A program made the position numbers and the translations under genes. Under the pieces are notes generated by a model that was not told where the DNA came from, made no database searches, and was given only the letters and a program-made list of their open reading frames with translations. Below are positions 44,108 to 64,000 of a DNA stretch of 64,000 nucleotides, piece after piece. Source of the stretch: Vairimorpha necatrix (Eukaryota); the NCBI GenBank assembly GCA_036630325.1, contig CP142736.1:558001-622000 (forward strand), given 5' to 3'. Numbering within the stretch: the stretch's first letter is position 1; each line of letters opens with the position of its first letter.

Positions 44108-44814
44108 GATTAAAGTATATTTAGAGTTTCTACAATGTATGATTTTAATATCGAATCAATATTTGATTTTGTAGTACCTTTCTTATTTAATTTAATTTAA
44201 ATTCTAACTCGTATAATTATATTTACACAGATCTATAGCTATCATTTCTTTGTTTTAATTCTTTGAAAAATTAAAAAATAATGCGAAATAAACAATAAAC
44301 GTTCATTGTGTATTGTATGGTACAAAAATAACATACATATAGTTATAACAATGGAGATTCATCAGGAATTTATTCTTAAAATATCATAGACGTACAGAAC
44401 TCAATAATTAACTAAAATATCTGTTGTAAACTAGCACAATAATTTCTTTAAATAGAATTAAGGATAAATACCGACAATATCAACTTGGTGGCAGGCATCT
44501 TTTTTCATAACATCACTTATTTTACTTTTGTTATCATGTTAAAAAACATGACTTGTCATATTTGTCCTGTTAAATTTATATCTACATTATAATCTTTTGT
44601 ATTAATAAATTTGTTTCATTGTTTATGTTTGTGTGCGAAATTGTTTAAGTTCCATTGTAAAATTGTTTAAGTTTGTTTGCAATATTGTTTGAGTTTGTTT
44701 GTAATATTGTGAAATTGTTTGAGTTTATATGTAAAATTGTTTTAGTTTGTTGATTTAAAAGTTATTTAAACAAACAAATAAAACTATAAATAAAGAAAAA
44801 AATTTAACCTTAAT

Positions 44815-46212
44815 ATGTTTTTCGTGAACTTGCTCATTGTTTTCATTAAAACAATAAGACCATTTACTGCTGTCATTGCAGAAGGAACTTGCGAACAAAT
44901 ACCCGAAGATATTTGTAAGGCTGTAGGTAGACGAGGGGTTGTAGCTAATTCTACAAATATCAATGCCATGGTAAACTTATTGAATAAAATGAACATTGAA
45001 AAGGCCTATGTATTTGGGTGGGAAGATTGCCCAGAGACCATGGTATTGTATTCTAATGGAGCTCTTGTCCCATACATCAAAGACAGAATTAGAAGTAAAT
45101 ACGCAATGTGCATAGGAGATTGTCCATGTAGACCTAAAATACTAGGCGAATCTACTAAAGAATGTTGTGCTATTAAGGAAGAGAGACCTAAATCATGTTG
45201 CGAAACAAAGAATATAGAATCCAAGACCTGTTGTAGTACAGATAAAAGGGCCGAAAGTCTATGCTCATGCAATCAGATGCTAGTCAACAAATCTGGGTTT
45301 ACAATGAAAAGCCAACCTCACGTGTCGTGTTGTAATACGCAAGAAACAACATCATTCTGTATCATTAAAGATCATGAAGGTAAAATGACAGAATCCAAAA
45401 AGTGTTTTCTAACTCAAGAATCAGCGCCCCGTCAATTTGAAAGATATAAAGGTTCATGTTGTTACATTGACAAGAGATCGTGCTGTAAAAAGACACGACC
45501 GAGAGCTTGCACCAATGATCGTAAAAATAATTGTAGATGTCATTTAAATAAAAGACCGTGCTGCAGTTATGATTATAAACAGCATTGTTTTAAAACAAAA
45601 AGATGTTGTATTGATAAAAACTCATACAATGATAATAATCATAAGCTACGCCTTTGTAATAATGAACACTACGAAGAATCTCATGGATCAAGACAAGAAA
45701 ACGAGTCTTCTTCAGACATTTATATTCAGAGCTCTGAAGAATATTGTGACGTGAAAATAGATAATTGCTTAGTACCTCCTACTATCGAACATAATGAATA
45801 TTTTCAAGAATTTTTTTATGCCGATGAAGAAAGAAAAAATAAAACGACGACAATAAAATCAAAATCTTTTGAATTTAAGACAGTCGAAGATGGAAATATT
45901 TCTTTAGCAGAAAATGAACACACATATCAACACACAAAAAAAGAAATAGTAATTGACAAATGTGATGGTAAACTGTTGAACATTCCTAGAAAATTATATG
46001 ATCCATTCCTACTCTATCAAATTACTAGTAAACTCAGTTCCAAGCATCGTATGCCCGTGTGTCTATATATCACTGACGATGATTTATTATTTGTGATGAT
46101 AAATCATAAGATGTATCACGTTGACATAACATGTAGAAAGTTAGTACTTGAAGAAGTATGTAATAAAGATAAGGAAATGCTTCAATTGCATCTCATAAGA
46201 TTTAGAAATTAA
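44815..46212 (+). CDS. Secreted Cys-rich spore wall/endospore protein, EnP1 (SWP30)-like
   Basis: Hydrophobic N-terminus; CEQIPEDICKAVGRRGVVA..GWE..LYSNGALVPY..YAMCIGD resembles the Encephalitozoon EnP1 N-terminal domain as recalled; long CC-rich basic middle; AATAAA overlaps the stop. Confidence 0.8.
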   Translation: MFFVNLLIVFIKTIRPFTAVIAEGTCEQIPEDICKAVGRRGVVANSTNINAMVNLLNKMNIEKAYVFGWEDCPETMVLYSNGALVPYIKDRIRSKYAMCIGDCPCRPKILGESTKECCAIKEERPKSCCETKNIESKTCCSTDKRAESLCSCNQMLVNKSGFTMKSQPHVSCCNTQETTSFCIIKDHEGKMTESKKCFLTQESAPRQFERYKGSCCYIDKRSCCKKTRPRACTNDRKNNCRCHLNKRPCCSYDYKQHCFKTKRCCIDKNSYNDNNHKLRLCNNEHYEESHGSRQENESSSDIYIQSSEEYCDVKIDNCLVPPTIEHNEYFQEFFYADEERKNKTTTIKSKSFEFKTVEDGNISLAENEHTYQHTKKEIVIDKCDGKLLNIPRKLYDPFLLYQITSKLSSKHRMPVCLYITDDDLLFVMINHKMYHVDITCRKLVLEEVCNKDKEMLQLHLIRFRN

Positions 46213-49200
46213 ATAAATACTTAGTGTAAAATTTTTCTTAATATACAAAAAACACTTTTCTTTAACACTTCTTTTTTTTCTAATATATTACTATTTAAAG
46301 TAATAACTTAAAACGTTTGAATTTGAATCTATAATAATGGGTCTTTGTAAAGAACTCATGTCATTTACAAGCGTGAAAGATACATTATTTATTTTTTATG
46401 AAAATCATTATTAATAGAGTTTATTTCTAATTGATATTTGCTCGAACAAACACAATAATACTAATCTACATAAAAACTTCGTTTAGCATATTTTTACTAA
46501 AATTTATCTTAATCATATTTTTTTTTCATGGCTTATATACTTATAAAATCATTTTTTTGTTGTAAAAGGTCTACGTATTACTAGACTTAAAATTTAATGA
46601 GTTTAGAAAGATTTAGAAATGATATATTTATTTTAAATCATCAAATTGTATTTTGTAATTGACAATTCGTTATGTACGCTAATATATCAATTAAATTTAA
46701 ATTTTATGTTTTAATTCGTTTTGAATGAGTTCTACGATATATTTTATGATATATTTCGTAGAGACCAGGGCATACATCATATCATGAGACTTAAAAGCAT
46801 CGGAATTAGAGTATAGTTTTTTGTACTTACAAATTGGGATATAATACATTTGGATTCATTTCACCTTTAGATCATTATTACTATAAGTCACTTCTGTGTC
46901 AGATTAACAAACTCCGATTAAACTTTCTATTTTTATACAAACCCATTTTTGTGGCTATAAAGTCAATGATGGCATTATATTTTTTATATATCTACTTCTA
47001 CTATATTACACCAATAATGTTAAATGGTTTTTTTTGTGTTTTAAAACACACCAATTTTATAACTTTATAATTATTTTGTCATTAAGATTTAATCTAGTTG
47101 AGATTCTCAAACTGATTTTTCGAAGAGCATGTATTATATTTTTATACATCTTTATTCGAATTATGTTTTTGTAAAACTTAAATCCAATATATCATAAAGA
47201 CATTTTTTGGAATTTTTTTAACATTTCCACAAAAAAAAAAAACGAAAACATATTACTCATAAAAATGTGTGTAATTAGTATAAAACAATTGAACCTAAAA
47301 CATTTAGAAGATACTTCATTATAGGTATTAGGTTGCTATGATTTAATTTTCTATTTAAGTTTTGTTTAGATGTAATTTCTACTTTTTTAGAAACCATGAT
47401 CTTTCCTTTTTAAATTCACCCAGCACAGGTAGAAGTTTAAATAAAAAACAAGAAGAAGAACGAATCAAGCTGATAGCGTTATAAAAAAAAGAATGCATGC
47501 GCTAGTGTACTTTTAAAATATTAAGAAAAAACAATAATCAAAAATTAAAACAATAATACTCATATAAAAAAAATATAAAAGTAACAAATTGAAAATTTAT
47601 CCAGGATGTTTCAAATTTTTTAAAAGGATGCAAAGGTCTTATTGAAGATGATGAAAGTCGAGTTGTACAAAGGGAATTAAAATACTAGTAACGGGGGTGT
47701 CTTACACGATTATTGATTTTATATGATGAATAATGACTACTTTATTTTTGAAAGAACTTATAATATGAGAAAATGTATAAATGTTATATGTAAATATATA
47801 TTGGAAGTCCAACATACAGTGTTTATGTTTGTCTGAACAATACAATGTAAATTGATCCTGTTTCTAAAACAAATATTTTTTAAAAATAATCGAATCAGCT
47901 CTGTATGTCTGAAAAAATTTAGATAAAAAAGATATTGCAGTAATTTTTATTTCGGAAAGATTTTTAACTCGAACCACATAAATCTGAACTCAAATAGGAA
48001 GTTTAAGCATCCTATTAAATGCCTGAAACCGTTAGGGTGTTTAGACAAACAACTATGTACATTCTGTCATTGTTTCTCACTTCTTCGTATTTCAATGTAT
48101 TGATAAGTTACACAAAAGCCAAATATCTATAATATAATTATCGCCAATATAAAAATAATCCGGAAAAAATTATAATTTATAATATAAAAATCCATAGTTC
48201 AAATTCTACTATACTGTAACATATTGACGTATAAATTAAGAAGAGCACGAAGTTTACACATTTTATATGGCGTATAATAATTTCGCATAAATGAAATTAA
48301 TTATGGTTTAAAATGAAGTATTAGATTTTTTACGATAATAAAGACCTAAAAACATTTTGGATTGGTTTTAATCTAAATGAAAATAGAATCAGATTCTACT
48401 AGTGTTTTATTAGAAATCTTAAACTCAGTTGTAAGTTCTATATATCATACATTGCGACAAAAAGATTAACGATACAATGATTTCTTTACATATTGAAACC
48501 ATATTTAGTTGTCATTGTTATAGCAAAAATAAATAAAGCTTATAGAAAACGTATGAACTGTAAAATACGTAATATGTTATTGTTCAAACACCACAGTATA
48601 TATGCAATTGAACTAGAGCTAGAAGACTGCAGCGAGACATGATACAGACAAAATACATAAAATGAATTTGGAACCCAGAGAAAATTTAGATAATAAAGTA
48701 CGGAAGAATAAATAAGCCATTATAGCTTAATTCTATAGTTTTTTGGGTCGCTTTGCCAAAAACCTAAAGCCATGAGACAATTCTCAATTGTATATTTTTT
48801 TATTTCACTAATCTAATGCAAAAATTATTTTCATATTTTTAATTTATAATCGGAATCTATTTATTTTATATTTATACGATTGTTTTTGATAAAAAATTTT
48901 CTTTATTAAATCAAGAGTTTATTTCTAAAAAATTATTGTTTTCTTTTTTTAGACATAAAAATGCATTTTGTTAATATTTTCTAAATTTTTTGTTAGAGAC
49001 AATATATCTTGAGAGACACAAAGACGTTTGACAAATTCAGAAACATAATCTTAACAAGTTTTAATTAAAGTTTTTACTAAACGGGGGCTACTTGTAAATA
49101 TTGTTAATTACAGTCAAACTAAATAGATCCACAAGAGTTCAAATAATTGAATGTTATATTTAAGTTTTTAAATAGTTTTAAAACATATATATAAATGAGA

Positions 49201-50538
49201 AACTAAATATTTTAGAAATATATGTTTTTTTATATATTCTTGCTGTAGTATCCGATCAAATATTGACGAAACATATTTTTACAAGTAGAGATTTGTTTGC
49301 CTGCATAAGCTTTAAAAACATTTTAAAAGAAGGGTTGAGATATTACACTAAAATATTTAAAATTCCTGTAACAGCTACATCGATTTTCCATGTTAATATA
49401 CAGTTGCAACTCCTCCTCTAACTAAAGTTATATGTAAATGTTTTAAAAATCACCTATCAAAAAATATATTATTTTTTCCGCCGCGGCCAAATAAAGGGCC
49501 GGCCATGATGGTATGTTGCTTTATCATTTTTTTTGGTGTTTCATCGTTTCATATATTAATTTTGTGGCTCAATGTTTATATTAAGAAAATTTAATGATTT
49601 TGTTTGTATTTATCAAAAGCTGACAAAATAGACCTGTATAATTATATATTTTTGTAGGGCTACTGTCATATCATAATGACATATCACATAAAATAAATCT
49701 GTAAAACATCTTTCACTGACCGGCAAACGTCAAAAAAAAACTTTGAAAATATATTTATAATGTAAGATACAAACAATTAGTATTCTTGTTAAACAAATAG
49801 ACATCAAAAATAAAAGAAGTGCATGTAATCATACAGAAACAAGGCCAATGAAGCTATCAGTAAGTGAAGCAATAAAAATATATTTATAAGAACATATTTA
49901 CTTTATACTCTATAAATTAAGATACAATTATACGTGATGTATTTATTTGTATTATACATCACAAACTCATCATGGAAAAGGTTTAGAATATTATAATTAT
50001 GTGTAAATCGACGTCAAATTGTCATCCATCATCATATAGATGCCAAGTTACTTATTTATTTGTTGACCCAACAAATAAACAAAACAAATGTATATTGGAC
50101 AATATAATTTTACATCTGAGAATTAGATATTAAATCATTTAATTATCAGAATTATCATGATTTAAGATAAATTGTCAGTATAAGTTGTGTTATGTATAAT
50201 ACTGCAGTATCATGTAGATTCAACTCTTTATAAAGCACCATTTAGAATTCATGTTTTTTATACAATTTTTACACAATTATAAATGTTGCTAATCTCAGAT
50301 CACAATTTTGATCAGTGAATCAGTGATTAATCAATCATTTGCTGATTTATTAAAATAATTTTTTACCCTTGTAAAATTTTATTTCATCCAATCTGATATT
50401 ATATCATTTATTAAGTATTTTTAAACAATTATAGTTTTCATATTTTATATTATAAGAATTTGTATTAAGAAATATATTTATTTCTAATATTTTCATAAAT
50501 GCTGATTAAAATCAAATATATTGATTTTTAATACACAA

Positions 50539-51785
50539 CACCAGGTTGATTCTGCCTGACGTAGACGCTATTCCCTAAGATTAACCCATGCATGTTTTTG
50601 ATATGGAAAAATGGACTGCTTAGTAATACTCACTTTATTTAATGTATTAAATTAGTATAACTGCGTTAAAGTGTAGCATAAGACATATACAGTAAGAGTG
50701 AGACCTATCAGCTAGTTGTTAAGGTAATGGCTTAACAAGGCAATGACGGGTAACGGTATTACTTTGTAATATTCCGGAGAAGGAGCCTGAGAGACGGCTA
50801 CTAAGTCTAAGGATTGCAGCAGGGGCGAAACTTGACCTATGGATTTTATCTGAGGCAGTTATGGGAAGTAATATTCTATTGTTTCATATTGTAAAAGTAT
50901 ATGAGGTGATTAATTGGAGGGCAAATCAAGTGCCAGCAGCCGCGGTAATACTTGTTCCAAGAGTGTGTATGATGATTGATGCAGTTAAAAAGTCCGTAGT
51001 TTATATTTAAGAAGCAATATGAGGTGTACTGTATAGTTGGGAGAGAGATGAAATGTGACGACCCTGACTGGACGAACAGAAGCGAAAGCTGTACACTTGT
51101 ATGTATTTTTTGAACAAGGACGTAAGCTGGAGGAGCGAAGATGATTAGATACCATTGTAGTTCCAGCAGTAAACTATGCCGACGATGTGATATGATATTA
51201 ATTGTATTAGATGATAGAAATTTGAGTTTTTTGGCTCTGGGGATAGTATGATCGCAAGATTGAAAATTAAAGAAATTGACGGAAGAATACCACAAGGAGT
51301 GGATTGTGCGGCTTAATTTGACTCAACGCGAGGTAACTTACCAATATTTTATTATTCAGAGAAGATTTTTAATCTGAGAATGATAATAGTGGTGCATGGC
51401 CGTTTTCAATGGATGCTGTGAAGTTTTGATTAATTTCAACAAGACGTGAGACCCTTTTATTAATAGACAGACACAATCAGTGTAGGAAGGAAAGGATTAA
51501 AACAGGTCCGTTATGCCCTCAGACATTTTGGGCTGCACGCGCAATACAATAGATATATAATCTTTATGGGATAATATTTTGTAAGAGATATTTGAACTTG
51601 GAATTGCTAGTAAATTTTATTAAATAAGTAGAATTGAATGTGTCCCTGTTCTTTGTACACACCGCCCGTCGCTATCTAAGATGATATGTGTTGTGAAATT
51701 AGTGAAAACTACTTGAACAATATGTATTAGATCTGATATAAGTCGTAACATGGTTGCTGTTGGAGAACCATTAGCAGGATCATAA
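50539..51785 (+). rRNA. Microsporidian SSU (16S-like) rRNA
   Basis: caccaggttgattctgcctgac start, gtgccagcagccgcggtaa, gtacacaccgcccgtc, aagtcgtaaca; reduced length of about 1.25 kb. Confidence 0.98.
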
Positions 51786-51820: not shown

Positions 51821-53415
51821 TACCCACACATGGGATCAATAGGATACCATAACGATGAAGGTCGTAATAGAATACGAAAGTATATTATTTACCTAATTAA
51901 TATATTTATAATGTATTGATAACCCTTTGAACTTAAGCATATCATTAAAAGGAGGAAAAGAAACTAACTAGGATTTCTTTAGTAGCAGCGAGTGAACAAG
52001 AAATAACCCTCCATTGTAATCCTTAATTGGAGTTGTAAATGGTTTATTCTATTAATTATATTTATAGAGAATATTAAATTCGTTATTAATAGAATAGAAT
52101 AATGTACTTGAGTAGAGCTGCTTGGTAGTGCAGTTTGAATAAAGGTAGAATGAAATATCTAAGGTTAAATATAATGGTATACCGATAGAAAATAAGTACT
52201 GCGAAGGAACTTGTGAAAATGTGTGGAGTTTAGCCTTATTTTTAAGGACCCGTCTTGAAACACGGACCAAGGAGATTATAATTATAGCAAGATAAAAATT
52301 AAATTTTTTAATCTTTATTAACTTGATTAGTTATAATTATAAGACCCGAAACACAGTGAACTATACATGTTCTGGTTGAAGATAAGCAACAGTTTATTGG
52401 AAGACCATAATCATTCTGACGTGCAAATCGATGATTTAAGATGTGTATAGTGGCGAAAGACCAATCGAACTGTGTGGTAGCTGGTTCACAGCGAAATGTC
52501 TCTCAGGACAGCAGTTATTATTATATAGGACATAGATGTAGGACACTGTTATAGTTTTTTTACTATGAGAAATCTTTAATTCTATGGAATTATATAAATT
52601 AAATTTATATAATGAATCTATTGTATAACTAGTGGGCACATGATTGTAAGAATGATGTGCAAAAAGGGATGAACCTTATGAAACATTAAATATTCTAAAT
52701 AGTAGATATTATACCATAAATATGATGAATACATTGAGACAGTAGGGCGGTTGTTATGGAAGTAGAAATCCGCTAAGAAACGTGTTACAACGTACCTACC
52801 GAATGTATTATTGTATAAAATGGAAGAAGATTACTACTTTTATGAGATGTTTCTAATAAATATTTAGGTAGCTGTGCAATTTGTTTGTATTGAAGTATAT
52901 ATGTGAGTATATATAGAAGAAACAAATGAGCCGATCTTGGAGGCAGTAACAATATATTTGTATAGATATAGACTAGGGTTTTCAATTATTATTGAAGTGA
53001 ATCGGTGTTATTTATAAAAACAAAAAAGATTAATAATTCTTTATTAAATTATTATAAGGTAACTTGATAATGACAGTATATTTTAATAAATTTAAGATAA
53101 ATGAATTAAATTTTATTTTAACTATGGATTGTCATGATAAGAAATAGTTAATTATATATACTTGATAAAAATAAAATAATTTTAACCGTACCTATACCGC
53201 ATCAGGTGTCTTTGTATCATAACAAATATTTTAAATTAAAGTAAGTAAGGGAATTCGGCAAATTAGATCTGTAACTTTGGGATAAAGATTGGCTCTAGCA
53301 TGCTAGAACTTTTACTATGTAAGGAATCTGACTGTTTATTAAAAACATAGCTTTTTGTATTTACAAGAAGTGAATTCTGCCCAGTGCATTTATTGTTAAA
53401 GTTGTGTAAGCGAAT

Positions 53416-53468
<53 letters not shown>

Positions 53469-53567
53469 TTAATTGGTGACGCGCATGAATGGAGCAACGA
53501 GATTCCTACTGTCCCTACTTACAATTTTGTGAAACCACGAGACAAGGGAACGGGCTTGTTATTTATC

Positions 53568-53599
<32 letters not shown>

Positions 53600-54034
53600 T
53601 TAGTATGTTTTAATAAATATTCGGTATATTGTAGAGAGGTGGGAGAAGTATTGTGAAACCACTAGTATGTTTGAATATTTATTTATTAGAATATATGGGG
53701 AGTTTGGCTGGGGCGGTACAGCTGTTAAAAAGTAACACAGCTGTCCTAAGGTAGATGAATGATGGATGGTAACCATCAGTTTATTATAAGGGAATAAATC
53801 TGCTTTACTTTATGCATATGACTGTATTTAGTAGGGAAACCTTGGCCTAGCGATCCCAATTACATTCATTATGTATTGGGTGATTGAAAAGTTACCACAG
53901 GGATAACTGGCTTGTAGCAGGCAAGCGATCATAGCGACTCTGCTTTTTGATTCTTCGATGTCGTCTCTTCTGATCATCGTAGTGTATATGTTACGAAGTG
54001 TTGGATTGTTCACCCGGTAATGAGGAACGTGAGA

Positions 54035-54076
<42 letters not shown>

Positions 54077-54300
54077 TAAGTATTTTTGAGTGAACTTTGA
54101 TAGTACGAGAGGAACTCTAAGTGATGACCACTGGTAGTGCGATTAACTATTAAGTTATGTTGCTTAGCTACGTCGTTTCGATTAAGGCTGAAAGCCTCTT
54201 AAGCCTGAAGCGTAGCTCAAAGATATATTTAGGAGAATACTACTCTTTTAAGCAGAACTGTAAGAATGAAGGTGTATGCCGACATTTTGAGGTTACTGCT
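51821..54300 (+). rRNA. LSU rRNA with 5.8S-equivalent fused at its 5' end
   Basis: aacgatgaag (5.8S motif), gaacttaagcatatca, gacccgtcttgaaacacggacc, taactatgactctcttaaggtagccaaa, SRL agtacgagaggaac; ends approximate. Confidence 0.97.
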
Positions 54301-54597
54301 TTTTTTGTATGTATAGTAGGTGTTGTGTTGTATTGAGAGCGTACTTGATGTGGAGGGTGGGACTGATGTTTTTTAACTAGGTGCAGATCTCTAAGTCTTA
54401 CCAACCTTCGGCTGCTGGTTGGTAAGTAGGGTCAGCTATACTCTAGGGGTGGGAGACCCATTGCTGGTATGAAGAACACCGTTAACTTTCGAGTAATTCT
54501 TCATATTTTTAACCTGGGAGAGGTTGGGCATGATACTGAAGCTGTATTGTTCCGCTGAACTGAGTCGTGTTCTTAAATGGTGTATTGAACCAGGCGT

Positions 54598-54666
54598 ACC
54601 CTCCATAAGAGAGCGTCCACGTCGCGGAGGGTGGGACCGATGTTTTTTAACTAGGTGCAGATCTCT
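54598..54666 (+). ncRNA. HDV/CPEB3-like self-cleaving ribozyme (predicted)
   Basis: P1 accctcc/ggagggt, P2 agaga/tctct, P3 gcg/cgc, L3 tccacgt, P1.1 cc/gg, P4 acc..ggt, J4/2 gCaga (C54658). Confidence 0.85.
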
Positions 54667-55118
54667 AAGTCTTACCAACCTTCGGCTGCTGGTTGGTAAG
54701 TAGGGTCAGCTATACTCTAGGGGTGGGAGACCCATTGCTGGTGAGAAGGACACCGTTAACTTTCGAGTAATTCTTCATATTTTTAACCTGGGAGAGGTTG
54801 GGCATGATACTGAAGCTGTATTGTTCCGCTGAACTGAGTCGTGTTCTTAAATGGTGTATTGAACCAGGCGTTGTGTTTTCGTCAGGTCCGCGAAATATGT
54901 AGTCAGAGATGACTAAGGATCTGTTACCTACGGGAACAAATTTTTCTCCTACAAGCGAGGCCGTTGAGGTATGCTGGCGTGTAACCGCAATTATTGATGT
55001 TTTTCTGGTTGGTGGAGTTTTTGGTGGCTTGGTGGCTTTTCTTCGTTTTGCTGATTCTGTCTTTTTTACAATAAACAATTTCAATTTTATTTTTTAATTT
55101 TATTTTATTTTTTTTTTT
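54598..55118 (+). mobile_element. Ribozyme-headed SINE/SIDE-like element, copy 1
   Basis: Defined 5' end at the ribozyme, LINE-like 3' end, T-rich tail, flanked by a 102-bp repeat (54496-54597 / 55119-55220). Confidence 0.78.
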
Positions 55119-55221
55119 ATTCTTCATATTTTAAACCTGGGAGAGGTTGGACATGATACTGAAGCTGTATTGTTCCGCTGAACTGAGTCGTGTTCTTAAA
55201 TGGTGTATTGAACCAGGCGTT

Positions 55222-55290
55222 ACCCTCCATAAGAGAGCGTCCACGTCGCGGAGGGTGGGACCGATGTTTTTTAACTAGGTGCAGATCTCT
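55222..55290 (+). ncRNA. HDV/CPEB3-like ribozyme, second copy (predicted)
   Basis: Identical to 54598-54666; candidate catalytic C at 55282. Confidence 0.85.
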
Positions 55291-55721
55291 AAGTCTTACC
55301 AACCTTCGGCTGCTGGTTGGTAAGTAGGGTCAGCTATACTCTAGGGGTGGGAGACCCATTGCTGGTGAGAAGAACACCGTTAACTTTCGAGTAATTCTTC
55401 ATATTTTTAACCTGGGAGAGGTTGGGCATGATACTGAAGCTGTATTGTTCCGCTGAACTGAGTCGTGTTCTTAAATGGTGTATTGAACCAGGCGTTGTGT
55501 TTTCGTCAGGTCCGCGAAATATGTAGTCAGAGATGACTAAGGATCTGTTACCTACGGGAACAAATTTTTCTCCTACAAGCGAGGCCGTTGAGGTATGCTG
55601 GCGTGTAATCGCAATTATTGATGTTTTTCTGGTTGGTGGAGTTTTTGGTGGCTTGGTGGCTTTTCTTCGTTTTGCTGATTCTGTCTTTTTTACAATAAAC
55701 AATTTTATTTTTTTTTTTTTT
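55222..55721 (+). mobile_element. Ribozyme-headed SINE/SIDE-like element, copy 2
   Basis: Same 5' end as copy 1; 15-bp TSD attgaaccaggcgtt (55207-55221 / 55722-55736). Confidence 0.8.
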
Positions 55722-56099
55722 ATTGAACCAGGCGTTGTGTTTTCGTCAGGTCCGCGAAATATGTAGTCAGAGATGACTAAGGATCTGTTACCTACGGGAA
55801 CAAATTTTTCTTTACAAGCGAGGCCGTTGAGGTATGCTGGCGTGTAATCGCAATTATTGATGTTTTTCTGGTTGGTGGAGTTTTTGGTGGCTTGGTGGCT
55901 TTTCTTCGTTTTGCTGATTCTGTCTGTCAGGGGACAAGCCCAGGTGCATACTGAGACTTGCCCTGCCCAAGGAATGAATTGTGTTTTGACAGGGCTTTGG
56001 AGAGACCAACACATTAATTGAGAAATGACAGGGAAATATGAATGTGGTCCTCAGCAATAGCATATTCAAAAAGAATACCAATGAGTTATAGAAACAATA

Positions 56100-57794
56100 A
56101 TGAAGGGTAAAGCGCAACAAACCAGGAGCAAGCTCAGTAGAGCAAAAAGTGACCACTTTGGTGGTCCAAACAACAATTTAAATACAGAAATGTATTTAAA
56201 ACAACAAACTAAGCATGTATATGCTAATAAAAGTTTCCCAAGTGTTACTTTCAAAAATGATGGAGAAATGAAATATTTTCTCAAGAAAATCAAAATTCTT
56301 TCAGAAAGAATTAATAAAAACGATATTTTTGACACGTCAAAAAAAGAAAATAACAAAGATCTTCTTGATATTAAAAGATACATATCTAGCACTACTGAAT
56401 TAGTATTGATTCAGCAGACATATTTGGAGCTCTTCCATGATAAGCTAGAAAAACAAAATATCAAATTAAAAAATTTGAAAAAAAATAATCTGATGGATGA
56501 CAGTAATCAAATTACAGAATCAACAAAAAATAAAATTGAGATGATGATAGAGAATCACTCAAAAGAATGTGTAGAACAAAAGGATAATAACTCCGATGTT
56601 CCAAATGATACCAGTAGCGAAACCCTTCAGTTAGCTACTGGAAACAATGATATTTCTAAATTAGAAATCATCAATGAAGATGTTTTAATTAATGTCAAAA
56701 ATCTCCCATCTGCTGTCATAAATCTCGACACTGCTGTCAAAGTAGAAGAACAAGATAAATTGTCAGAAGATGGCAAAAGAAAATGTATAGATGTTTCAAA
56801 GGCATCTACAGATATTATAATTAATAAAAATATTAAACCAAAAGATGGTAAGCTAGATATAGCTTCCATTAACAAAAAAGCAGTAGTTAGACATCTGTCA
56901 ACTATCTCTGCTATTATAGCTGGTAAAAGAAAAGCTCCTAAGAATGGAGTCAAGCTTTTCCATATAAACGAAGACGGATGGACATCTGTCAAACACACAT
57001 TCAAGCCTAAAGTCCAGATAGACTTGAAGAAAAACAGAAGTGGTAAAACCACAGATAAAACCAACTTTAATAGATTTAAATCACTTAAAGTAGAAACTAG
57101 TGGCAATGTAAAAGTGCCTAAAAAGATTAATCATGAAGCTGTAAAGAGAAAAGATATCATTCCTAAAAGAGATCATGAAAAAAGAAGATTACTAAATCAG
57201 AAAATAAATTTTACAAAAAAAACGAAGGACAGAAAAAATGAGAAATGTCAACAAAAAAGAAGGCCAGTTTTACCAAAGAAAAACTGGGCCAAAGAGCTAA
57301 CTGAAGAAGCTCTTATGAAAATTATAAAGGATGGTAGAATTATTTCCAAATGTAAGTTTAGGCTAGCTCTTGCTTCTGGACTCGGATTGAAAGGGAAACC
57401 TCAATCTAGAGACGCTTGGGCAGCCTTAGCTGATGTGGAAAATAAAGATATACCACTTATAAAACAATTTAAAGACTCGGAAGTAGTACTTCTGATGATT
57501 AGAGAACACGTGTGCCAAAAGGTACTAAGCAAGATTAAAGAAAAGTTCGGAGGTTCTAATATCTGCGATGAAGTTAATTTCTTCATCGACTTTTTGTCTT
57601 TAACAAAAACAACTGTTCTAGGAGAGCTGCAAAGACTCTCTGGAACGCATAAAAATTTTGTACCGCTTGTAAAAGCATGTTGGTACATAACTAAAGAATT
57701 AAATAAAGAAAAGCCAAACCATGGTTCTTTCATTTATTTAGAAAATATGATGGGTGAGCCTGCCCGAGAATCTAAGGACTTTAACAATGAATAA
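56100..57794 (+). CDS. LINE ORF1 protein (basic, probable N-terminal coiled coil)
   Basis: 564-aa open frame before ORF2; paralog at 62618; no CCHC knuckle seen. Confidence 0.8.
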   Translation: MKGKAQQTRSKLSRAKSDHFGGPNNNLNTEMYLKQQTKHVYANKSFPSVTFKNDGEMKYFLKKIKILSERINKNDIFDTSKKENNKDLLDIKRYISSTTELVLIQQTYLELFHDKLEKQNIKLKNLKKNNLMDDSNQITESTKNKIEMMIENHSKECVEQKDNNSDVPNDTSSETLQLATGNNDISKLEIINEDVLINVKNLPSAVINLDTAVKVEEQDKLSEDGKRKCIDVSKASTDIIINKNIKPKDGKLDIASINKKAVVRHLSTISAIIAGKRKAPKNGVKLFHINEDGWTSVKHTFKPKVQIDLKKNRSGKTTDKTNFNRFKSLKVETSGNVKVPKKINHEAVKRKDIIPKRDHEKRRLLNQKINFTKKTKDRKNEKCQQKRRPVLPKKNWAKELTEEALMKIIKDGRIISKCKFRLALASGLGLKGKPQSRDAWAALADVENKDIPLIKQFKDSEVVLLMIREHVCQKVLSKIKEKFGGSNICDEVNFFIDFLSLTKTTVLGELQRLSGTHKNFVPLVKACWYITKELNKEKPNHGSFIYLENMMGEPARESKDFNNE

Positions 57795-60700
57795 AGTATC
57801 TTTGTTAAAGTCCTGTTATTATAGGAAATTATTTTCCTATAACAAGAGTGATATTTTCAAATCTCTAAATAAAAAAACGCATAATCCAATTGGATTTACT
57901 CAGATTAAAAATACTTTCCAAACGACAACGAGATTGAATAGTCTCAAATATTTTTCTATTAGAAAGAATATGTGGTGGAAGAAAGTACAAGAACAATATT
58001 GTATTGTCAAGATACAAAGAATTCCTTATGGAGTGAAAGATCTCCTCAAAGACTTATGTAAGAAGAACTCTCTTTTGGAGAATTCCATTATTACAGCAAG
58101 AAAGTATAGACGAAGAGACACGTCTTTTACAAAAATAATAGTTGAAAAACTATACGCAAATTTATTGATTAAGACAGTTAAAGCTAAAGGCTTTAAAGTT
58201 TTAAATGATAATAGAAAAAAACTAGAGAAATCTAGTAAAGTAAATAAAAAGACCAAAGAGAACATAAAACTCTTAAGTCTAAACATTAACCATCTCTCTA
58301 ACAAGAGAGAAGAACTCGAGTGGCTTCTAAAGAAGGAGGAACCAGAAATTATGTGTTTACAGGAAACTTGGAGACAATCTACAAGACCTTTAAAACTTGA
58401 AAAATACACTACAGTTGAAACACTTAGTAGTGGAAAAAATAAACCAGGATTAATAACTCTGGTTAGAAATAATGGAGCGATCAGATGTTCCAAAAAAGGA
58501 ACCGACTCAAACATTCTGCAAACTGTAGTTGAGTTTAGTTCAGCAGGCAAATGGATTAAGTATTTAGTCTTAAATGTCTACATACCACAAAACAAGGATC
58601 TCAAAAGGGAGACCTTGGCCAGATTATTTTCTCTTTTAGAAAAAGAGAATTTCAGAAATAACTATAGTGAGATCATAGTGATGGGAGATATGAATATGCA
58701 GAGTTCTAGTCTCAAGAAAAAACTAAAGGTAGTTGGTTTGCCAGTTACAATAAAATATAACAGCAACGATGGTACAAGGATTCTCAAAGATGGTAAAAGA
58801 TCTAAGAGAAAAATTGATACCATCTTTCGACTAAAAAGTAATGATAATGAGAAGATCATTATATCCAAGTCTTGGGTATTAAGTGATCACTTAGTGCTCA
58901 AAAGAAATATTAAACTTACTGTTGATAAGATCTCAGATCAACTAGTTTATGATAAGAAGATGCTGGAAAATCCAAAAGTGATTAAAAAGCTTAAAAAGAA
59001 GTTGTGTAATCAACAATTAAACATGAATAATCTTCCTGAGATTATTCAAAAAGTTTGTACATCTTTGAAGATTTACAAAAAGAGAGGAGGCCATACTGGA
59101 CTTACAATGAGATGGAGATATTTAAAAGTCTTCAAAGAAAAACGTCTAGCAGCAAGAGCTGTTATGAAAAATTATAATGAAATCAACTCAATTAGATTCG
59201 AATATCTCAAAAAGAGAGTAGACGAAACTAAAAAGTTGATTCGCAAAGATAGATCGAAACTTTGGGCTTTAAGAGGAATAAAGCTCTTTAAAAGTAACAG
59301 ATCCCGAGAATTCTGGCAATGGCTGAAAAATAGAAGTGTCTCCATTCGTTTGGATCAAGTGGCTCTAATTGACCACAATAAGATTCTTCAGACTTGCCGA
59401 GCAAAGAAGCTAGAAATAGCGAATAAATTTTACGCTGATTTGGCGTCAGAGAATGATATAGATGTCAATGTCTATGATAAAGTAGATCTTGTTGATCTTC
59501 CCCCAGAGATAACAGATGAAGAATTTCTATCCGCACTGAAGAAATGTGGAAATAACAAAGCAGCCGGTCCTGATGAGATTCCAACCGAGCTATACAAACA
59601 CTTACTGACTAGAGCAGTAGAAGATAAATTCTTTAAATTCATGCTACATGAATTTAATAAATATATTTGTGGAAATAGTCCTCCTGAATACTGGAGCATG
59701 GCAAACATGATTTGCCTTCACAAAAAAGGAGATGAGACAGATCTGAATAATTATAGGGGAATCTCCTTAATTAACACAATTAGTAAGATCTATCTCAAGA
59801 TAATAAATGACAGGTTAACTCAATTTGTCGAAGAACAAGATATACTCTCTAGATACCAAGCAGGATTCCGAGCAGGTGAAGAGTGTATGAATCAGATTAC
59901 ATCTCTACTAGAAATAGTGAGAAGAAGAGAATTCAGAGGCCTGAACACAATAATGTGTTTCATTGACTTTGAAAAAGCTTATGATAATGTAAGTCATGAC
60001 TTATTATTTGAGAAGCTTACAAAACTTAATATCCCATTGTATTTAATCAATACAATAAAGGGTATTTATAAATATACCACCATGCGTGTGAAAATTGGTG
60101 GTGACACGTCAAGTGGCTATAGCTACAGAAAAGGAGTGAGACAAGGGTGCCCTTGTTCTCCAATGCTGTTCAATATATTCATCAATGATACTTTTGACGG
60201 CATAGAAGGAGTTTTGATCCCAAGATCAAATACGAGAGTTCCGGGACTGATGTTCGCAGATGATATTGTTGTCTTCGGAAACAACATTGATGATCTTAAT
60301 AATAAGATCAATAGAATTTCTAATTGGGCGGTTAATAACAGAATGAGGATTAACTGCACAAAAAGCGGAATATTAGAATGGGCTGCTCATTCTAAAATAC
60401 AAGAATTCCGAAGTTTGTATTCTCTCAGTACAGACTTTGGTGTGATTGAGGAAGTCACTGAATACAGATATCTAGGTGTCTTAATTAAAAGAAACACGCT
60501 AGAAGAACACTTGGTCAAAGACGCAGCAATGCGTGGCAAGAAAGCCTTGGACGCCTTGATGCCCAAGTTGATGAATAATAGCATCAACCTTTACTTCAAG
60601 GCGATCTTAATCAAATGTGTACTAGTACCCACACTAATGTATGGTAGTGAACTGTGGGGAATGTCAAGTACAAGAGCAGGTAAGATTAACAGGATCTTAA

Positions 60701-61479
60701 GAAAATCTATCAGAATGATATTCAAAAGAGTATTAGTTCCACTAGATAGAGTAATGGACGAGTTCAGTATCGAACGAATTCATATACAAGCAGCTTTAAG
60801 TAGATTTAGAGCATACAACAAGTGGAAACACAATAAGACAATCATATCGGATATAATTGCAATAAATCCGAAAGAAAGAAAAACTACCTGGTGTTCAAGA
60901 ACACAAAGATGGTTAAAACGATTTGTCGGCAACGAATACGAATCAAGTGATAGTAAATTTATCACTTCAAAAATAATTGATGTACTAAGAAGTCGAAGAA
61001 CTCTAAATACTTCCTTAGCTGCATCAATAGCAAACCAATATGACATAAGAAATTCACAAATAAAATATGTCATGAACAAAATAAATAATAGAAAAATTAG
61101 AACATATACTAGATTGAGATGTAATCTAGTAAAGTGGTCCTCAGCAATAGCATATTCAAAAAGAATACCAATGAGTTATAGAAACGAATGCTTTTTGTGT
61201 GATGGACCACAAGAAAATTTAGAACACTTTCTGCTGGAGTGCGTCTGTTTAACTGACATTAGATCATCTTTTGAAAATAAACTGCCTCTACTGACTTGTT
61301 CAAAAACAAATATCCGAGATAAAACCAAGCAACTCCTTGGTAATAAAATCGGACTAAAAAATAACCCAGATAAGATAAAAGAACTTTGTTGCACTATAGA
61401 GTTCTTAGATAGAATGGTTGTCTCTAGAAGAATTATGATTAATAACAAACTGAAGGAGATAACGAAACAAAATAATTAA
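57787..61479 (+). CDS. LINE ORF2: APE endonuclease, reverse transcriptase, C-terminal CCHC
   Basis: LSLNIN, CLQET, GDMN, SDH; AGPDEIP, NYRGISL, QAGFR, FIDFEKAYD, GVRQG, FADD; CFLC..EHFLLEC. Confidence 0.96.
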   Translation: MNKVSLLKSCYYRKLFSYNKSDIFKSLNKKTHNPIGFTQIKNTFQTTTRLNSLKYFSIRKNMWWKKVQEQYCIVKIQRIPYGVKDLLKDLCKKNSLLENSIITARKYRRRDTSFTKIIVEKLYANLLIKTVKAKGFKVLNDNRKKLEKSSKVNKKTKENIKLLSLNINHLSNKREELEWLLKKEEPEIMCLQETWRQSTRPLKLEKYTTVETLSSGKNKPGLITLVRNNGAIRCSKKGTDSNILQTVVEFSSAGKWIKYLVLNVYIPQNKDLKRETLARLFSLLEKENFRNNYSEIIVMGDMNMQSSSLKKKLKVVGLPVTIKYNSNDGTRILKDGKRSKRKIDTIFRLKSNDNEKIIISKSWVLSDHLVLKRNIKLTVDKISDQLVYDKKMLENPKVIKKLKKKLCNQQLNMNNLPEIIQKVCTSLKIYKKRGGHTGLTMRWRYLKVFKEKRLAARAVMKNYNEINSIRFEYLKKRVDETKKLIRKDRSKLWALRGIKLFKSNRSREFWQWLKNRSVSIRLDQVALIDHNKILQTCRAKKLEIANKFYADLASENDIDVNVYDKVDLVDLPPEITDEEFLSALKKCGNNKAAGPDEIPTELYKHLLTRAVEDKFFKFMLHEFNKYICGNSPPEYWSMANMICLHKKGDETDLNNYRGISLINTISKIYLKIINDRLTQFVEEQDILSRYQAGFRAGEECMNQITSLLEIVRRREFRGLNTIMCFIDFEKAYDNVSHDLLFEKLTKLNIPLYLINTIKGIYKYTTMRVKIGGDTSSGYSYRKGVRQGCPCSPMLFNIFINDTFDGIEGVLIPRSNTRVPGLMFADDIVVFGNNIDDLNNKINRISNWAVNNRMRINCTKSGILEWAAHSKIQEFRSLYSLSTDFGVIEEVTEYRYLGVLIKRNTLEEHLVKDAAMRGKKALDALMPKLMNNSINLYFKAILIKCVLVPTLMYGSELWGMSSTRAGKINRILRKSIRMIFKRVLVPLDRVMDEFSIERIHIQAALSRFRAYNKWKHNKTIISDIIAINPKERKTTWCSRTQRWLKRFVGNEYESSDSKFITSKIIDVLRSRRTLNTSLAASIANQYDIRNSQIKYVMNKINNRKIRTYTRLRCNLVKWSSAIAYSKRIPMSYRNECFLCDGPQENLEHFLLECVCLTDIRSSFENKLPLLTCSKTNIRDKTKQLLGNKIGLKNNPDKIKELCCTIEFLDRMVVSRRIMINNKLKEITKQNN

Positions 61480-61886
61480 TATAGCTTAATTAAAAAAAAT
61501 GAAAATCTAGAATTAGAAGAAAGAAGTGTTATATTATTAACAAAAAGACTTATATTTAATTATATTTGACCTGGGAGAGGTCGGGCATGATACTGATGCT
61601 GTATTGTTCCGCTGAACTGAGTCGTGTTCTTAAATGGTGTATTGAGCCAGGCGTTTTCGTTTTTCATTAGACCCGTGAAAATGGGTCTCTAGTCATATTA
61701 TGACTAAGGATGTGTCCTATGGGAACAAACTTTTCTCCTACAAGCGAGGCCGTTAAGGTATGCTGGCGTGTAAACGCAATTATTGATGATTTTTTCTTTA
61801 TTAGTGGAGTTTTTGGTGGCTTGGAGGCTTTTCTTCGTTTTGCTGATTCTGTCTTTTTTACAATAAACAATTTTATTTTATTTTTT

Positions 61887-62600
61887 ATGAGTTATAGAAA
61901 CGAATGCTTTTTGTGTGATGGACCACAAGAAAATTTAGAACACTTTCTGCTGGAGTGCGTCTGTTTAACTGACATTAGATCATCTTTTGAAAATAAACTG
62001 CCTCTACTGACTTGTTCAAAAACAAATATCCGAGATAAAACCAAGCAACTCCTTGGTAATAAAATCGGACTAAAAAATAACCCAGATAAGATAAAAGAAC
62101 TTTGTTGCACTATAGAGTTCTTAGATAGAATGGTTGTCTCTAGAAGAATTATGATTAATAACAAACTGAAGGAGATAACGAAACAAAATAATTAATATAG
62201 CTTAATTAAAAAAAATGAAAATCTAGAATTAGAAGAAAGAAGTGTTATATTATTAACAAAAAGACTTATATTTAATTATATTTGACCTGGGAGAGGTCGG
62301 GCATGATACTGATGCTGTATTGTTCCGCTGAACTGAGTCGTGTTCTTAAATGGTGTATTGAGCCAGGCGTTTTCGTTTTTCATTAGACCCGTGAAAGTGG
62401 GTCTCTAGTCATATTATGACTAAGGATGTGTCCTATGGGAACAAACTTTTCTCCTACAAGCGAGGCCGTTAAGGTATGCTGGCGTGTAAACGCAATTATT
62501 GATGATTTTTTCTTTATTAGTGGAGTTTTTGGTGGCTTGGAGGCTTTTCTTCGTTTTGCTGATTCTGTCTTTTTTACAATAAACAATTTTATTTTTTTTT
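61887..62600 (+). mobile_element. Right part of a 5'-truncated LINE copy (left part 56044-56095) hosting the intact element
   Basis: Near-identical to 61171-61886. Confidence 0.88.
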
Positions 62601-62615
62601 TGTTGCACTATAGAG

Positions 62616-64000
62616 TAATGAAGGGTAAAGCGCAACAAACCAGGAGCAAGCTCAGTAGAGCAAAAAGTGACCACTTTGGTGGTCCAAACAACAATTTAGA
62701 TACAGAAAGGAATTTAAAACAACAAACTAAGCATGTATATGCTAATAAAAGTTTCCCAAGTGTTACTTTCAAAAATGATGGAGAAATGAAATATTTTCTC
62801 AAGAAAATCAAAATTCTCTCAGAAAGAATTAATAAAAACGATATTTTTGACACGTCAAAAAAAGAAAATAACAAAGATCTTCTTGATATTAAAAGATACA
62901 TATCTAGCACTACTGAATTAGTATTGATTCAGCAGACATATTTGGAGCTCTTCCATGATAAGCTAGAAAAACAAAATATCAAATTAAAAAATTTGAAAAA
63001 AAATAATCTGATGGATGACAGTAATCAAATTACAGAATCAACAAAAAATAAAATTGAGATGATGATAGAGAATCACTCAAAAGAATGTGTAGAACAAAAG
63101 GATAATAACTCCGATGTTCCAAATGATACCAGTAGCGAAACCCTTTAGTTAGCTACTGGAAAGAATGATGTTTCTAATTTAGAAATGTTAAATGAAGATA
63201 TTTTAATTAATGTCAAAAATCTCGAATCTGCCTCTAAAGTAGAAGAAGAAGATAGATTGTCAGAAGATGGCAAAAGAATGTGTTTAGAAACAATTGAAGT
63301 CTCTAAAGAAAGTAAAAATATAACTAATGAAGTTGTAAATACCAATAATGTTAAGCTCGATGTAGCTGACATAAATAAGAAAGCAGTAGATAATCATCTT
63401 AAAATTATCTCAGCAATAATATCTGGTAGAAGCAAAGCTCCAAAGAATGGAGTTAAGCTATACCAAATCAATAAAGATGGATGGAAGTCTGTCAGACATA
63501 CCTTTAAGCCAAAGATGCAATTTGGTCTTAATAAAAACTCTAGTATTAAACATACTAAATTAAAAGAACTTAATAGATTTACTTCTATTAAAGTAGAAAA
63601 CCTAGGGAAGTGTATTAAATTTCCCAAAAAGGAAAGCCTAACAATGTCACTAGGCGAGAAAAAAAATTCCATCAAAGAAAAGAAAAATTTAAGCCCCAAA
63701 ATGGCTAAGAAGGAATCCCAAGAGAAATCTGGCAAGAAAATAAACCCAGTTCAACCTCAGAAGAACTGGGCAAAAGGGCTTTCTAAAGAAGCTCTCATTA
63801 AAATTATTAGAGGTGGATGTCCTATATCCAAATGCAAATTTAAATTTGTATTGGTAGGAGGTCTGGGAGTATGGAAGGAGCACCAAGCTAGAGACGCTTG
63901 GGCTGCTCTACTCACTATTGAGAGAAAAGACATCCCACTCTTAAAGCAGTTTAGAGATGAAGAGTCTATTCTCTTGATGCTCAGAGAAGGTACCTGCGAA
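62616..64000 (+). mobile_element. Second LINE copy: ORF1 from 62618 with a CAG>TAG stop at 63146; runs off the window
   Basis: Near-identical to ORF1 up to about 63160, then diverged but in frame. Confidence 0.88.

Follow-up and report, generated by a model that had tools for sequence, protein, structure and literature searches.

The window, a 64-kb stretch of the Vairimorpha necatrix genome, lies 358 kb inward from the right end of a 980-kb contig (C11; end at 979,666) and carries a microsporidian SSU rRNA gene (50539..51785, plus strand; Rfam RF02542, 1051.8 bits) followed on the same strand by an LSU rRNA gene (51900..54299; the Rfam model reaches 54234, and the sequence is common to all 18 rDNA units of the assembly up to 54299). 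Behind the LSU stand a run of T (54300-54306) and a short 3′ flank (54307..54334), the first ~19 nt of which are common to array-bearing units and missing in the empty unit on contig C10. The family copies that follow, LINEs and short elements alike, all lie on the plus strand, as a sequence-only reading of the window had stated. Comparison of copies delineates an older short-element copy (54335..54597; a decayed ribozyme head plus modules A2 and B) that served as target of the next insertion; its head lacks the 5′ strand of P1, is altered in L3 and gives no descriptor match. Short element 1 (54598..55118) comprises an HDV-like ribozyme fold at its exact 5′ end (54598..54666, located by descriptor scan), module A2 (54667-54769), modules B and C and a T-rich tail; it lacks a TSD on its right side, and the tail runs into an extra copy of module B (55119..55221, without TSD partner), a junction left either by nested insertion or by a template jump. 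Short element 2 is full length (55222..55721, with its descriptor-matched fold at 55222-55290) and is flanked by a clean TSD of 15-16 bp (55207-55221 / 55722-55736), beyond which the host copy that it interrupts resumes (module C, 3′-truncated; 55737..55925). Next come 115 bp from an unrelated repeat that is dispersed in the genome (55926..56040; 16 matches genome-wide, probably an LTR); the junction of this fragment with module C recurs at C6:552,664. This fragment contradicts the earlier claim that no unrelated transposable elements follow the LSU; LTR elements, DNA transposons and also a second LINE break up other arrays of the family.

The intact LINE (56096..61886, delimited by TSD, ORFs and comparison) sits, as had been proposed, inside a truncated copy of itself: the 5′ piece of the host (56041..56095, from the ORF2 3′ region) ends in the 15-bp left TSD (56081-56095), and the remainder (61887..62601) comprises the right TSD (61887-61901), the end of ORF2, the 3′ UTR and the tail. 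A 4-nt leader precedes ORF1 (56100-57794, 564 aa), which overlaps ORF2 (57787-61479, 1230 aa from the first ATG) by 8 nt, and a 3′ UTR and T-rich tail close the element. ORF2 consists of a ~157-aa N-terminal extension, APE and RT domains and a CCHC finger (Pfam: E 7.5e-38 for RVT_1 and E 9.8e-5 for Exo_endo_phos, the latter below the curated cut-off), and its top PDB match is L1 ORF2p (E 1e-31, residues 158-903). With APE and RT in ORF2, the element is an APE-type LINE (non-LTR retrotransposon), and the family displays the TSDs (12-17 bp), truncated copies and T-rich tails of variable length seen in LINEs. ORF1 has no match in Pfam or Atlas, an absence that is no evidence of novelty. An ORF2-derived 15-mer (62602..62616, equal to 61388-61402) separates the host tail from a second, older LINE variant that is broken and 85% identical overall (5′ part at 62617..64000, continuing to G000:C11:626,361; ORF1 open over 176 aa, RT frame of 515 aa). 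The sequence-only reading had described a 16-mer here; the match is 15 nt, or up to 18 nt with shared T's, and with no partner found after the 3′ end of that LINE it is not a demonstrated TSD.

The short element is ~500 nt long, and its 3′ end (modules B and C) is 88% identical to the LINE 3′ UTR over ~328 bp. At its head, a feature absent from the sequence-only reading, residues 54598..54666 can be folded into P1 (7 bp), P2 (5 bp), P3 (3 bp) with a 7-nt L3, P1.1, P4 and a C-A-G-A J4/2, an arrangement that matches the HDV-like pattern in its five helices and C-N-R-A junction and in which nucleotide 1 of P1 coincides with the TSD-defined end. A descriptor of the fold finds two matches in the window, both at TSD-defined 5′ ends, and 17 matches across 800 kb of loci, all in the short element, with none in 3000 dinucleotide shuffles; a relaxed version finds 20 of 20 matches in the family and none in 1.1 Mb of shuffled DNA. 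Since this descriptor was composed after the sequence was seen, the shuffle result speaks of rarity and not of activity. Across 14 heads the J4/2 C is unchanged in all 14 and 92.8% of cells are paired; the covariation score is matched by 85 of 500 shuffles and so is not significant; three pairs display two-sided change, which is equalled in 17 of 500 shuffles. Several heads carry pair-breaking changes. Rfam returned no HDV family match for the head at E up to 5, and its minimum free energy folding is unremarkable (z 0.40). On the strength of the helices and of their position, the short element appears to begin with an HDV-like ribozyme fold in the manner of SIDEs. We found no report of an HDV-like ribozyme in microsporidia, or of this element, in a literature search that lacked most subscription papers and supplements.

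Three joins between ribozyme and ATG raised the candidate that the ribozyme is the 5′ UTR of the LINE. The join on C7 arose from insertion of a LINE, with a TSD of 17 bp, into a short element, which rejects the candidate there, and those at C11:711,909 and C3:837,374 are without a TSD of their own; no TSD-flanked ribozyme-LINE unit was found, and among 48 head matches no LINE has the ribozyme head as its own leader. The seven TSD-flanked LINE heads all begin 0-4 nt before the ATG, without ribozyme. The LINE that donated the head may be lost or too divergent to recognize. A 5S-derived head, as in SINE3, was rejected: the match to the box C region of the host 5S gene spans 9 nt, and the likeness of A2 is not significant, being reached by 71 of 1000 shuffles (the 13 host 5S genes themselves lie away from the SSU-LSU units). 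Searches for a Pol III head in the short element gave 0 hits with ARAGORN and none in Rfam, and a run of six T occupies its nucleotides 46-51.

The 18 rDNA units of the assembly are dispersed, and 17 of them are followed directly 3′ by same-strand nested arrays of family DNA; in these 17 it begins no more than ~80 bp past the LSU end and continues into LINE ORF sequence, C10 being the only array-free unit. The LSU 3′ halves (1,500 bp) are free of any insertion in all 18. Arrays reach up to ~35 kb in length, and the 35-kb same-strand zone behind the LSUs amounts to 2.1% of the genome. The RT search gave 106 matches. The 32 that reach 75% identity or more across 100 aa or more, which represent 30 copies, all lie on the same strand and less than 23 kb from an LSU end. 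A distance of 45 kb from an LSU takes in 45 of the 48 head matches (with 40 of 45 candidates scored) and 64 of the 66 tails, and no family copy was met on the rDNA promoter side in the stretches read. Mapping of copies upholds the association of the young family with rDNA; the targets lie partly in unrelated DNA. Three orphan short elements occur in the genome.

Within arrays, 9 of 13 intact TSD-flanked insertions fall in the proximal tenth, a set that omits distal heads without TSD and rests on array lengths corrected by hand (foreign transposable elements taken out). Uniform self-insertion reached this figure in 0 of ~1,500 simulated runs in each of three event orders; anchored simulations also under-fit the proximal bias, and LINE heads alone do not discriminate between the models. 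RT identity, referred to the window's own copy, drops with distance (rho -0.50, p 0.004, n 30; rho -0.59 with two short extra fragments), and the nearest-neighbour identity of 3′ ends displays no trend (rho -0.12, p 0.34). Old long distal LINEs are mostly free of interruptions by young copies.

TSDs were identified at 13 of the 29 short heads and at 7 of the 19 LINE heads. Their sites are many, include unrelated DNA and are densest close to the LSU end. The first base after the tail is A in 54, G in 10 and C in 2 of 66 cases (A expected 53%; p ~1e-6), and 64 tails give 50 distinct 3′ flanks. Family sequence follows at least 44 of the 66 tails, many of which run into internal family positions without a left TSD; of the 24 tails mapped to the short element, 8 are followed by the 3′ edge of the ribozyme, to which reading by eye adds 3. 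Both short elements of the window (54598 and 55222) do follow the end of a module B, as had been noted, but the B|C site follows only 2 of 66 tails, ruling it out as a single fixed target motif. Two LINEs with 15-16-bp TSDs are inserted in non-family DNA, at 1.3 and 1.7 kb from an LSU on its 3′ side; LINE-free copies of that DNA exist elsewhere. In other cases a short element has landed in a LINE ORF or a LINE in the ribozyme, the inserted RNA having no homology to its target.

We consider it probable, though well short of certain, that a young APE-RT LINE targets the Pol I 3′ flank by position and carries an R2-SIDE-like passenger. A young subfamily of this Nosematid microsporidian would insert by target-primed reverse transcription into the first few kb 3′ of the rDNA, always in the rRNA sense and with a loose preference for a target that starts with a purine, mostly A, possibly through tethering to the Pol I machinery or to rDNA chromatin. 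New copies would nest in earlier ones within this zone and push the old ones outward; because the zone is already occupied by earlier copies, self-nesting would be mostly a consequence of position and not a signal. The sequence-only reading had the family use its own sequence behind the rDNA as a haven: the confinement to the rDNA 3′ side and the frequent self-landing bear out the place, but own sequence is probably not the signal, given the clean-TSD copies that lie in unrelated DNA at 1.3-1.7 kb past an LSU, together with the excess of proximal crowding. The short element would be a non-autonomous passenger, with the LINE 3′ UTR as its handle for the LINE enzyme, and a ribozyme at nucleotide 1 would cleave it free from Pol I read-through RNA, as for R2 SIDEs. 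The LINE probably has an internal promoter of its own, since it lacks the ribozyme and starts 0-4 nt before the ATG. Precedents for parts of this mechanism are described, in the portions of the sources available, for R2/R1 SIDEs (PMC3414825) and Dictyostelium TRE3 (PMC5911963).

The same arrays could have arisen if an old copy behind an ancestral rDNA unit was duplicated along with it and the RNP homes on family sequence, for instance through RNA-DNA pairing that would fix the orientation, the rDNA being incidental and gene conversion spreading the proximal copies. The frequency of family sequence after tails fits this account, as do the tails that enter internal family positions without a left TSD, as homology-joined insertions would, and the sole seedless unit is the empty one. 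The rDNA units also have 4.4 kb of upstream sequence in common and at least seven share the distal flank; twin units have identical junctions, and some sister copies self-nest away from rDNA. Several units have the same upstream and distal sequence and the same junctions, so the seeds were copied together with the rDNA and the 17 arrays are not independent. Against self-recognition stand the TSD-flanked insertions in unrelated DNA near an LSU, the short elements in LINE ORFs and LINEs in ribozymes that lack RNA homology, the rejection of uniform self-insertion by simulation, and the old distal LINEs left mostly uninterrupted; we hold it to be unlikely, while giving it serious weight. Untargeted insertion followed by selective retention in gene-poor, silenced DNA behind the rDNA would account for the unrelated LTR and DNA transposons that the arrays also gather and for the existence of a few orphan copies. 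It is hard to reconcile with the strict orientation of the family (unrelated elements within arrays lie in both orientations), with the lack of promoter-side copies in the stretches read, and with a genome that is TE-rich outside the arrays, where the sister clade survives at dispersed sites; we regard it as improbable.

Telomeric or subtelomeric arrays, suggested by the sequence-only reading and comparable to the HeT-A/TART kind, have in their favour that the right end of C11 is without telomere repeat in the assembly and that Encephalitozoon and Ordospora carry their rDNA in a subtelomeric position (PMC12449221, in the part of that source available). Here every one of the 18 units is interstitial, with ~149 kb as the shortest distance to a contig end, and the window array stops at G000:C11:626,610, ~4.6 kb beyond the window, with the contig continuing to its end. 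Of 19 contig ends examined, 17 bear simple TAGG/TTAGG repeats and none family DNA; the proposed search for TERT yielded a Telomerase_RBD match (63.6 bits) in a 925-aa frame; and TSDs denote internal insertion. A telomeric structure is refuted unless all 17 arrays are mis-joined in the assembly, and we accord it practically no credence. An assembly artefact from collapsed repeats, conceivable where very similar repeats adjoin near-identical rDNA and the arrays are known from the assembly alone, is very improbable in view of 17 arrays of differing make-up, 50 distinct junctions and clean TSDs; the family's words are present at fractions of 0.60 and 0.48 in two public runs, one of which may be the source sample (the public runs listed with such words are DNA, at contig level only, with no RNA run among them). 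A last variant accepts the targeting and takes the head to be inactive or incidental, the short element having its own promoter. The non-significant covariation, the lack of an Rfam match, the pair-breaking changes in several heads and a donor LINE not found among the 48 head matches would agree with it, against the fit of five helices and the C-N-R-A junction with P1 starting at the TSD-defined end; an own Pol III promoter in particular is opposed by the six-T run and by the lack of a tRNA or 5S head. This variant, too, seems rather unlikely to us.

R1 and R2, the best-known rDNA-specific LINEs, recognize a fixed sequence inside the gene. In V. necatrix the 3′ halves (1,500 bp) of all 18 LSU genes hold no insertion, the targets being variable and outside the gene, and the autonomous LINE, unlike R2, is without HDV-like ribozyme, as its seven TSD-flanked heads display. 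The short element resembles SIDEs in having an HDV-like fold at its exact 5′ end and a 3′ end common with its partner LINE. R2/R1 SIDEs, as far as the available part of PMC3414825 describes them, occupy fixed sites inside 28S; the present element occupies a zone 3′ of the LSU and combines a predicted ribozyme and a T-rich tail with a ribozyme-less partner LINE and no head donor found. The position-specific elements reviewed in the accessible portion of PMC5911963 have Pol III genes as their anchors. TRE3 as described there is alike in its ORF1 and APE-RT-zinc-finger ORF2 and in its same-orientation, position-specific insertion downstream of a stable-RNA gene over a distance window; it differs in using tRNA genes, a 40-150-bp window and an oligo(A) tail, in contrast to a putative Pol I anchor, a wider and looser window and nested arrays here. 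L1Tc/NARTc and the SIDERs of trypanosomatids (PMC4035085, available part) likewise pair an APE LINE with short derivatives and a ~70-80-nt HDV-like ribozyme head that frees them from co-transcripts, but their autonomous LINE carries the ribozyme head as well, and they have no link with rDNA. HeT-A/TART/TAHRE, GilM/GilT and Zepp form one-family, same-direction arrays (PMC10088271, available part), whereas ours are interstitial in a genome with telomerase and simple repeats.

In Hamiltosporidium tvaerminnensis and Gurleya vavrai, specific LINEs lie mainly 3′ of interstitial rRNA operons, between tail-to-tail operons (PMC12449221); the available part of that account describes co-location only, without TSDs, orientation, nesting, short element or ribozyme, and the likeness noted here is one of location. 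Position-specific targeting of the Pol I flank would offer a mechanism for this co-location. A broader extension, which we put forward tentatively and think doubtful as a whole, is a targeting of Pol I units that parallels the targeting of tRNA genes: a LINE tethered to the termination/read-through zone could support a ribozyme-headed passenger whose ribozyme 3′ edge would be an insertion hot spot, leaderless LINEs landing there would gain a processed 5′ end, and the arrays could help to move or multiply rDNA units; the LINEs between tail-to-tail operons in other microsporidia would make an old phylum-wide strategy possible. If true, a LINE choosing its position behind Pol I units would unite the R1/R2 and position-specific themes, and with 18 separately assembled rDNA units its target rule can be counted.

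In a quick RT tree, for which near-identical array copies were thinned beforehand and whose relatives are unnamed or loosely named, a dispersed sister clade (14 rows, support 100) lies away from rDNA. Vairimorpha ceranae 'endonuclease-reverse transcriptase' proteins (clusters P0001 and P0002), known from proteins alone, are 67% identical in the RT region, agree in ORF2 layout and length, and fall in one clade with both subfamilies found here. A metagenome scan gave only distant relatives among the matches listed (23-39% identity), which is uninformative on close relatives, and 80 such distant loci held no rDNA, short-element or HDV matches. The sister clade is ~25% identical to the young subfamily in ORF1 and the ORF2 N-terminus and 57% in the endonuclease, and it offers a natural control for the targeting determinant. 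Some sister-clade copies self-nest away from rDNA, and self-nesting is also a habit of Zepp.

The microsporidian SSU rRNA gene (50539-51785) and the LSU rRNA gene (51900-54234), both on the plus strand and both recognized by Rfam, are followed by a T run, a decayed short element (54335-54597) and an array of same-strand, nested copies of a young LINE and its ~500-nt companion. Short element 1 (54598-55118) is separated by an extra B module from short element 2 (55222-55721, TSD of 15-16 bp), after which the remainder of the interrupted copy resumes. A 115-bp foreign fragment (55926-56040; unrelated to the family, 16 matches genome-wide) precedes the intact LINE (56096-61886), which is flanked by a 15-bp TSD and interrupts a 5'-truncated copy of the same LINE; a further LINE, older and broken, begins at 62617. 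The sequence-only reading had this layout right, save for the foreign fragment and for short element 1 and the second LINE, which both lack their own TSD pair. Its impression that the array lacks unrelated TEs is set aside by that fragment, and the purity is local to the window, since unrelated TEs break up other arrays of the family. Window 1-44000 carries what appear from translations to be dense Ty3/gypsy-like, Helitron-like and Merlin/Tc1-like remnants, with no match there to the rDNA-linked family; a Cys-rich 472-aa frame upstream of the rDNA (44794-46212; second ORF copy at 3360-4226) has no Pfam match.

Mapping the copies across the assembly and comparing the arrays at other rDNA units, as had been proposed, revealed strict confinement of the young family. 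RT matches number 106 genome-wide; the 32 with 75% identity or more across 100 or more residues represent 30 copies, all of which lie behind rDNA on the same strand, at most 23 kb from an LSU end (35-kb zones on that strand make up 2.1% of the genome). Short-element heads behave similarly, with 45 of 48 matches within 45 kb of rDNA and three orphans (40 of 45 candidates scored). Family DNA starts on the rRNA strand within ~80 bp of the LSU end in 17 of 18 units, followed by LINE sequence, and is absent behind the LSU of the C10 unit. Directly after the LSU (window 54307-54370 and the equivalent place in 16 other units), 30-70 bp carry a decayed ribozyme head in four variants that recur; gene conversion may have fixed them, or they may serve as rRNA 3' spacer.

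A telomeric or subtelomeric array, the other suggestion of the sequence-only reading, is ruled out. The window sits inside a 979,666-bp contig (G000:C11:558,001-622,000), and beyond position 64000, where a look for telomere repeats or further array had been suggested, the array stops at G000:C11:626,610 and ordinary DNA follows. All 18 rDNA units are internal, the nearest ~149 kb from a contig end. Of 24 contig ends, 19 were retrieved: mixed TAGG/TTAGG repeats cap 17 of them but not the other two, among which is the right end of C11, and the last 3 kb of all 19 are free of family DNA. The suggested TERT search found a Telomerase_RBD domain in a 925-aa frame. Dispersed, non-subtelomeric rDNA is described for a Vairimorpha species in part of one report (PMC10759460), whereas Encephalitozoon rDNA, unlike the internal units here, is subtelomeric according to a passage of another (PMC12449221). 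The telomere tracts (loci L197-L215, contig ends) combine TAGG and TTAGG units irregularly instead of repeating a pure 5-mer, which suggests telomerase template slippage; the relevant passages of both sources mention the 5-mer alone for a Vairimorpha species (PMC10759460, PMC12449221).

The units appear to share ancestry. Because the 4.4 kb before the SSU (window 46200-50600) is common to several of them at 92-98%, they look like segmental duplications, and since distal flanks (common to at least 7 arrays) and the junctions of some unit pairs are also shared, the 17 array-bearing units are not 17 independent events. The 64 tails nonetheless have 50 distinct 3' flanks between them, and most insertions therefore occurred unit by unit. 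The shared distal flank (L031:8700-10000, L032:1-4000) holds an old SINE-like stretch whose head looks tRNA-like to the eye, together with an old tail of the family and a remnant that we take to be piggyBac-like; it recurs at the rDNA-less site C3:784-787 kb, perhaps a unit that has lost its rDNA. A ~510-bp tandem repeat (L076:6631-7132, L072, L105) is present in arrays on contig C5, and single copies lie within a LINE and at window 19878-20381.

Either self-homology or position could guide insertion. Among the 29 short heads, 13 have a paired TSD, as do 7 of the 19 LINE heads, with lengths of 12-17 bp after discounting tail T's. In 66 cases the base next to the T tail could be read: 54 are A, 10 are G and 2 are C (p ~1e-6 versus 53% A), a bias consistent with a loose preference on the part of the endonuclease or with microhomology to the TTTTA unit of the tail. 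Of the sequences that follow the 66 tails, 24 come from the short element and 20 from the LINE; the other 22 are unmapped, some being short family fragments. The B|C site at the end of module B, where the sequence-only reading placed both short elements, accounts for 2 of the 66; the 3' edge of the ribozyme accounts for eight mapped tails and three more assigned by eye, a number that includes duplicates. Clean TSDs also flank two LINEs that lie outside family DNA, one in a Merlin-like transposon 1.7 kb behind an LSU and one in an old SINE-like stretch at 1.3 kb. Nine of 13 intact, TSD-flanked insertions fall in the proximal tenth of their array's family DNA. Uniform self-insertion was simulated with three event orders, and for each of them none of ~1,500 runs reached that figure. 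Among the short heads, 22 of 27 lie within 2 kb, more proximal than the same model predicts (P 0.001). LINE heads did not discriminate between the simulated models, and anchored models likewise under-fit. RT identity to the window copy drops with distance (rho -0.50), and nearest-neighbour identity of 3' ends shows no such fall (rho -0.12). We favour position over self-homology as the cue: the rDNA-linked nesting described earlier is upheld and sharpened to what is probably position-specific targeting with a passenger headed by a putative ribozyme. Some single TSDs enclose two elements, with tails running into internal family positions (e.g. C1:485-496 kb), and both template jumps and homology-joined nesting fit these.

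The passenger's 5' end (54598-54666, 55222-55290) is predicted to form an HDV-like fold, with P1 of 7 bp, J1/2 of 3 nt, P2 of 5 bp, P3 of 3 bp, P4, a C-A-G-A junction and a 7-nt L3 whose CC lies opposite GG as P1.1. Our descriptor, written with the sequence in view, matched twice in 64 kb (both short-element heads), 17 times in 800 kb of loci (all short element) and in 0 of 3000 shuffles; all 20 matches to a relaxed version lie in the family. Nucleotide 1 of P1 is the first base set by the TSD, a purine in 14 of 14 heads with a pyrimidine opposite in 13, and purine-pyrimidine first pairs are tolerated in HDV-like ribozymes. The junction C is invariant across the 14 heads, among which covariation does not exceed that of shuffles. 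The HDV ribozyme is outlined in part of PMC3774820 as a five-helix double pseudoknot with an L3 U-G pair and a catalytic C. The short-element head has no match in Rfam and is unlikely to be a Pol III head. Downstream come a middle module of no known origin (A2) and 328 bp at the 3' end that share 88% identity with the LINE 3' UTR. A shorter variant (L066:5500-5726, minus strand; G000:C4:835.7 kb) joins the fold straight to a LINE-type 3' UTR without A2, and may represent a second type of element or have arisen by deletion.

The copies themselves show the hallmarks of TPRT, the confinement, the orientation, the nesting and the fold; a likely route by which they arise can be proposed. Since both subfamilies start at ATG whatever the flank, LINE RNA would be transcribed from an internal promoter; its ribonucleoprotein would be attracted to the zone 3' of the Pol I unit, nick the template strand ahead of a purine and insert, so that arrays would grow from their proximal end. 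RNA of proximal short elements may come from Pol I read-through, the putative ribozyme releasing its 5' end, and the LINE enzyme would grip the 3' end common to both. The family as sketched works like R2/R1 SIDEs and like TRE3, as portrayed in parts of PMC3414825 and PMC5911963, but it belongs to neither, because its site lies outside the LSU, its LINE has no ribozyme and its anchor is not a Pol III gene. For two other microsporidia, a section of PMC12449221 places LINEs mainly between tail-to-tail rRNA operons and gives no mechanism, and Nosema MITEs are the only microsporidian entry in the portion of a TE-in-rDNA review consulted (PMC10946416). In the openly accessible literature searched, at the level of main texts, neither this element nor any HDV-like ribozyme from a microsporidian is described.

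LINE ORF2 carries APE, RT and a C-terminal CX2CX8HX4C motif, and no known domain was found in ORF1; the closest named RT relatives are annotated in Vairimorpha ceranae (67%) and Nosema granulosis (49%), which places the host among the Nosematids. A sister clade in the same genome (~60-70% aa to the family) is dispersed, T-tailed and mostly broken or frameshifted; like the family it is leaderless, starting with an A-run and ATG, and its ~5.6-kb copies (L108, L106, L103 and others) are 94-96% identical to each other. Some sit within or beside pieces of themselves (e.g. G000:C11:343-349 kb). Two arrays also house a second LINE type (L049:1056-4439, i.e. G000:C6:721,056-724,439, and G000:C12:539,182-541,189), which is GC-richer, A-tailed, 34-37% identical in amino acids to the family RT and groups with Smittium proteins.
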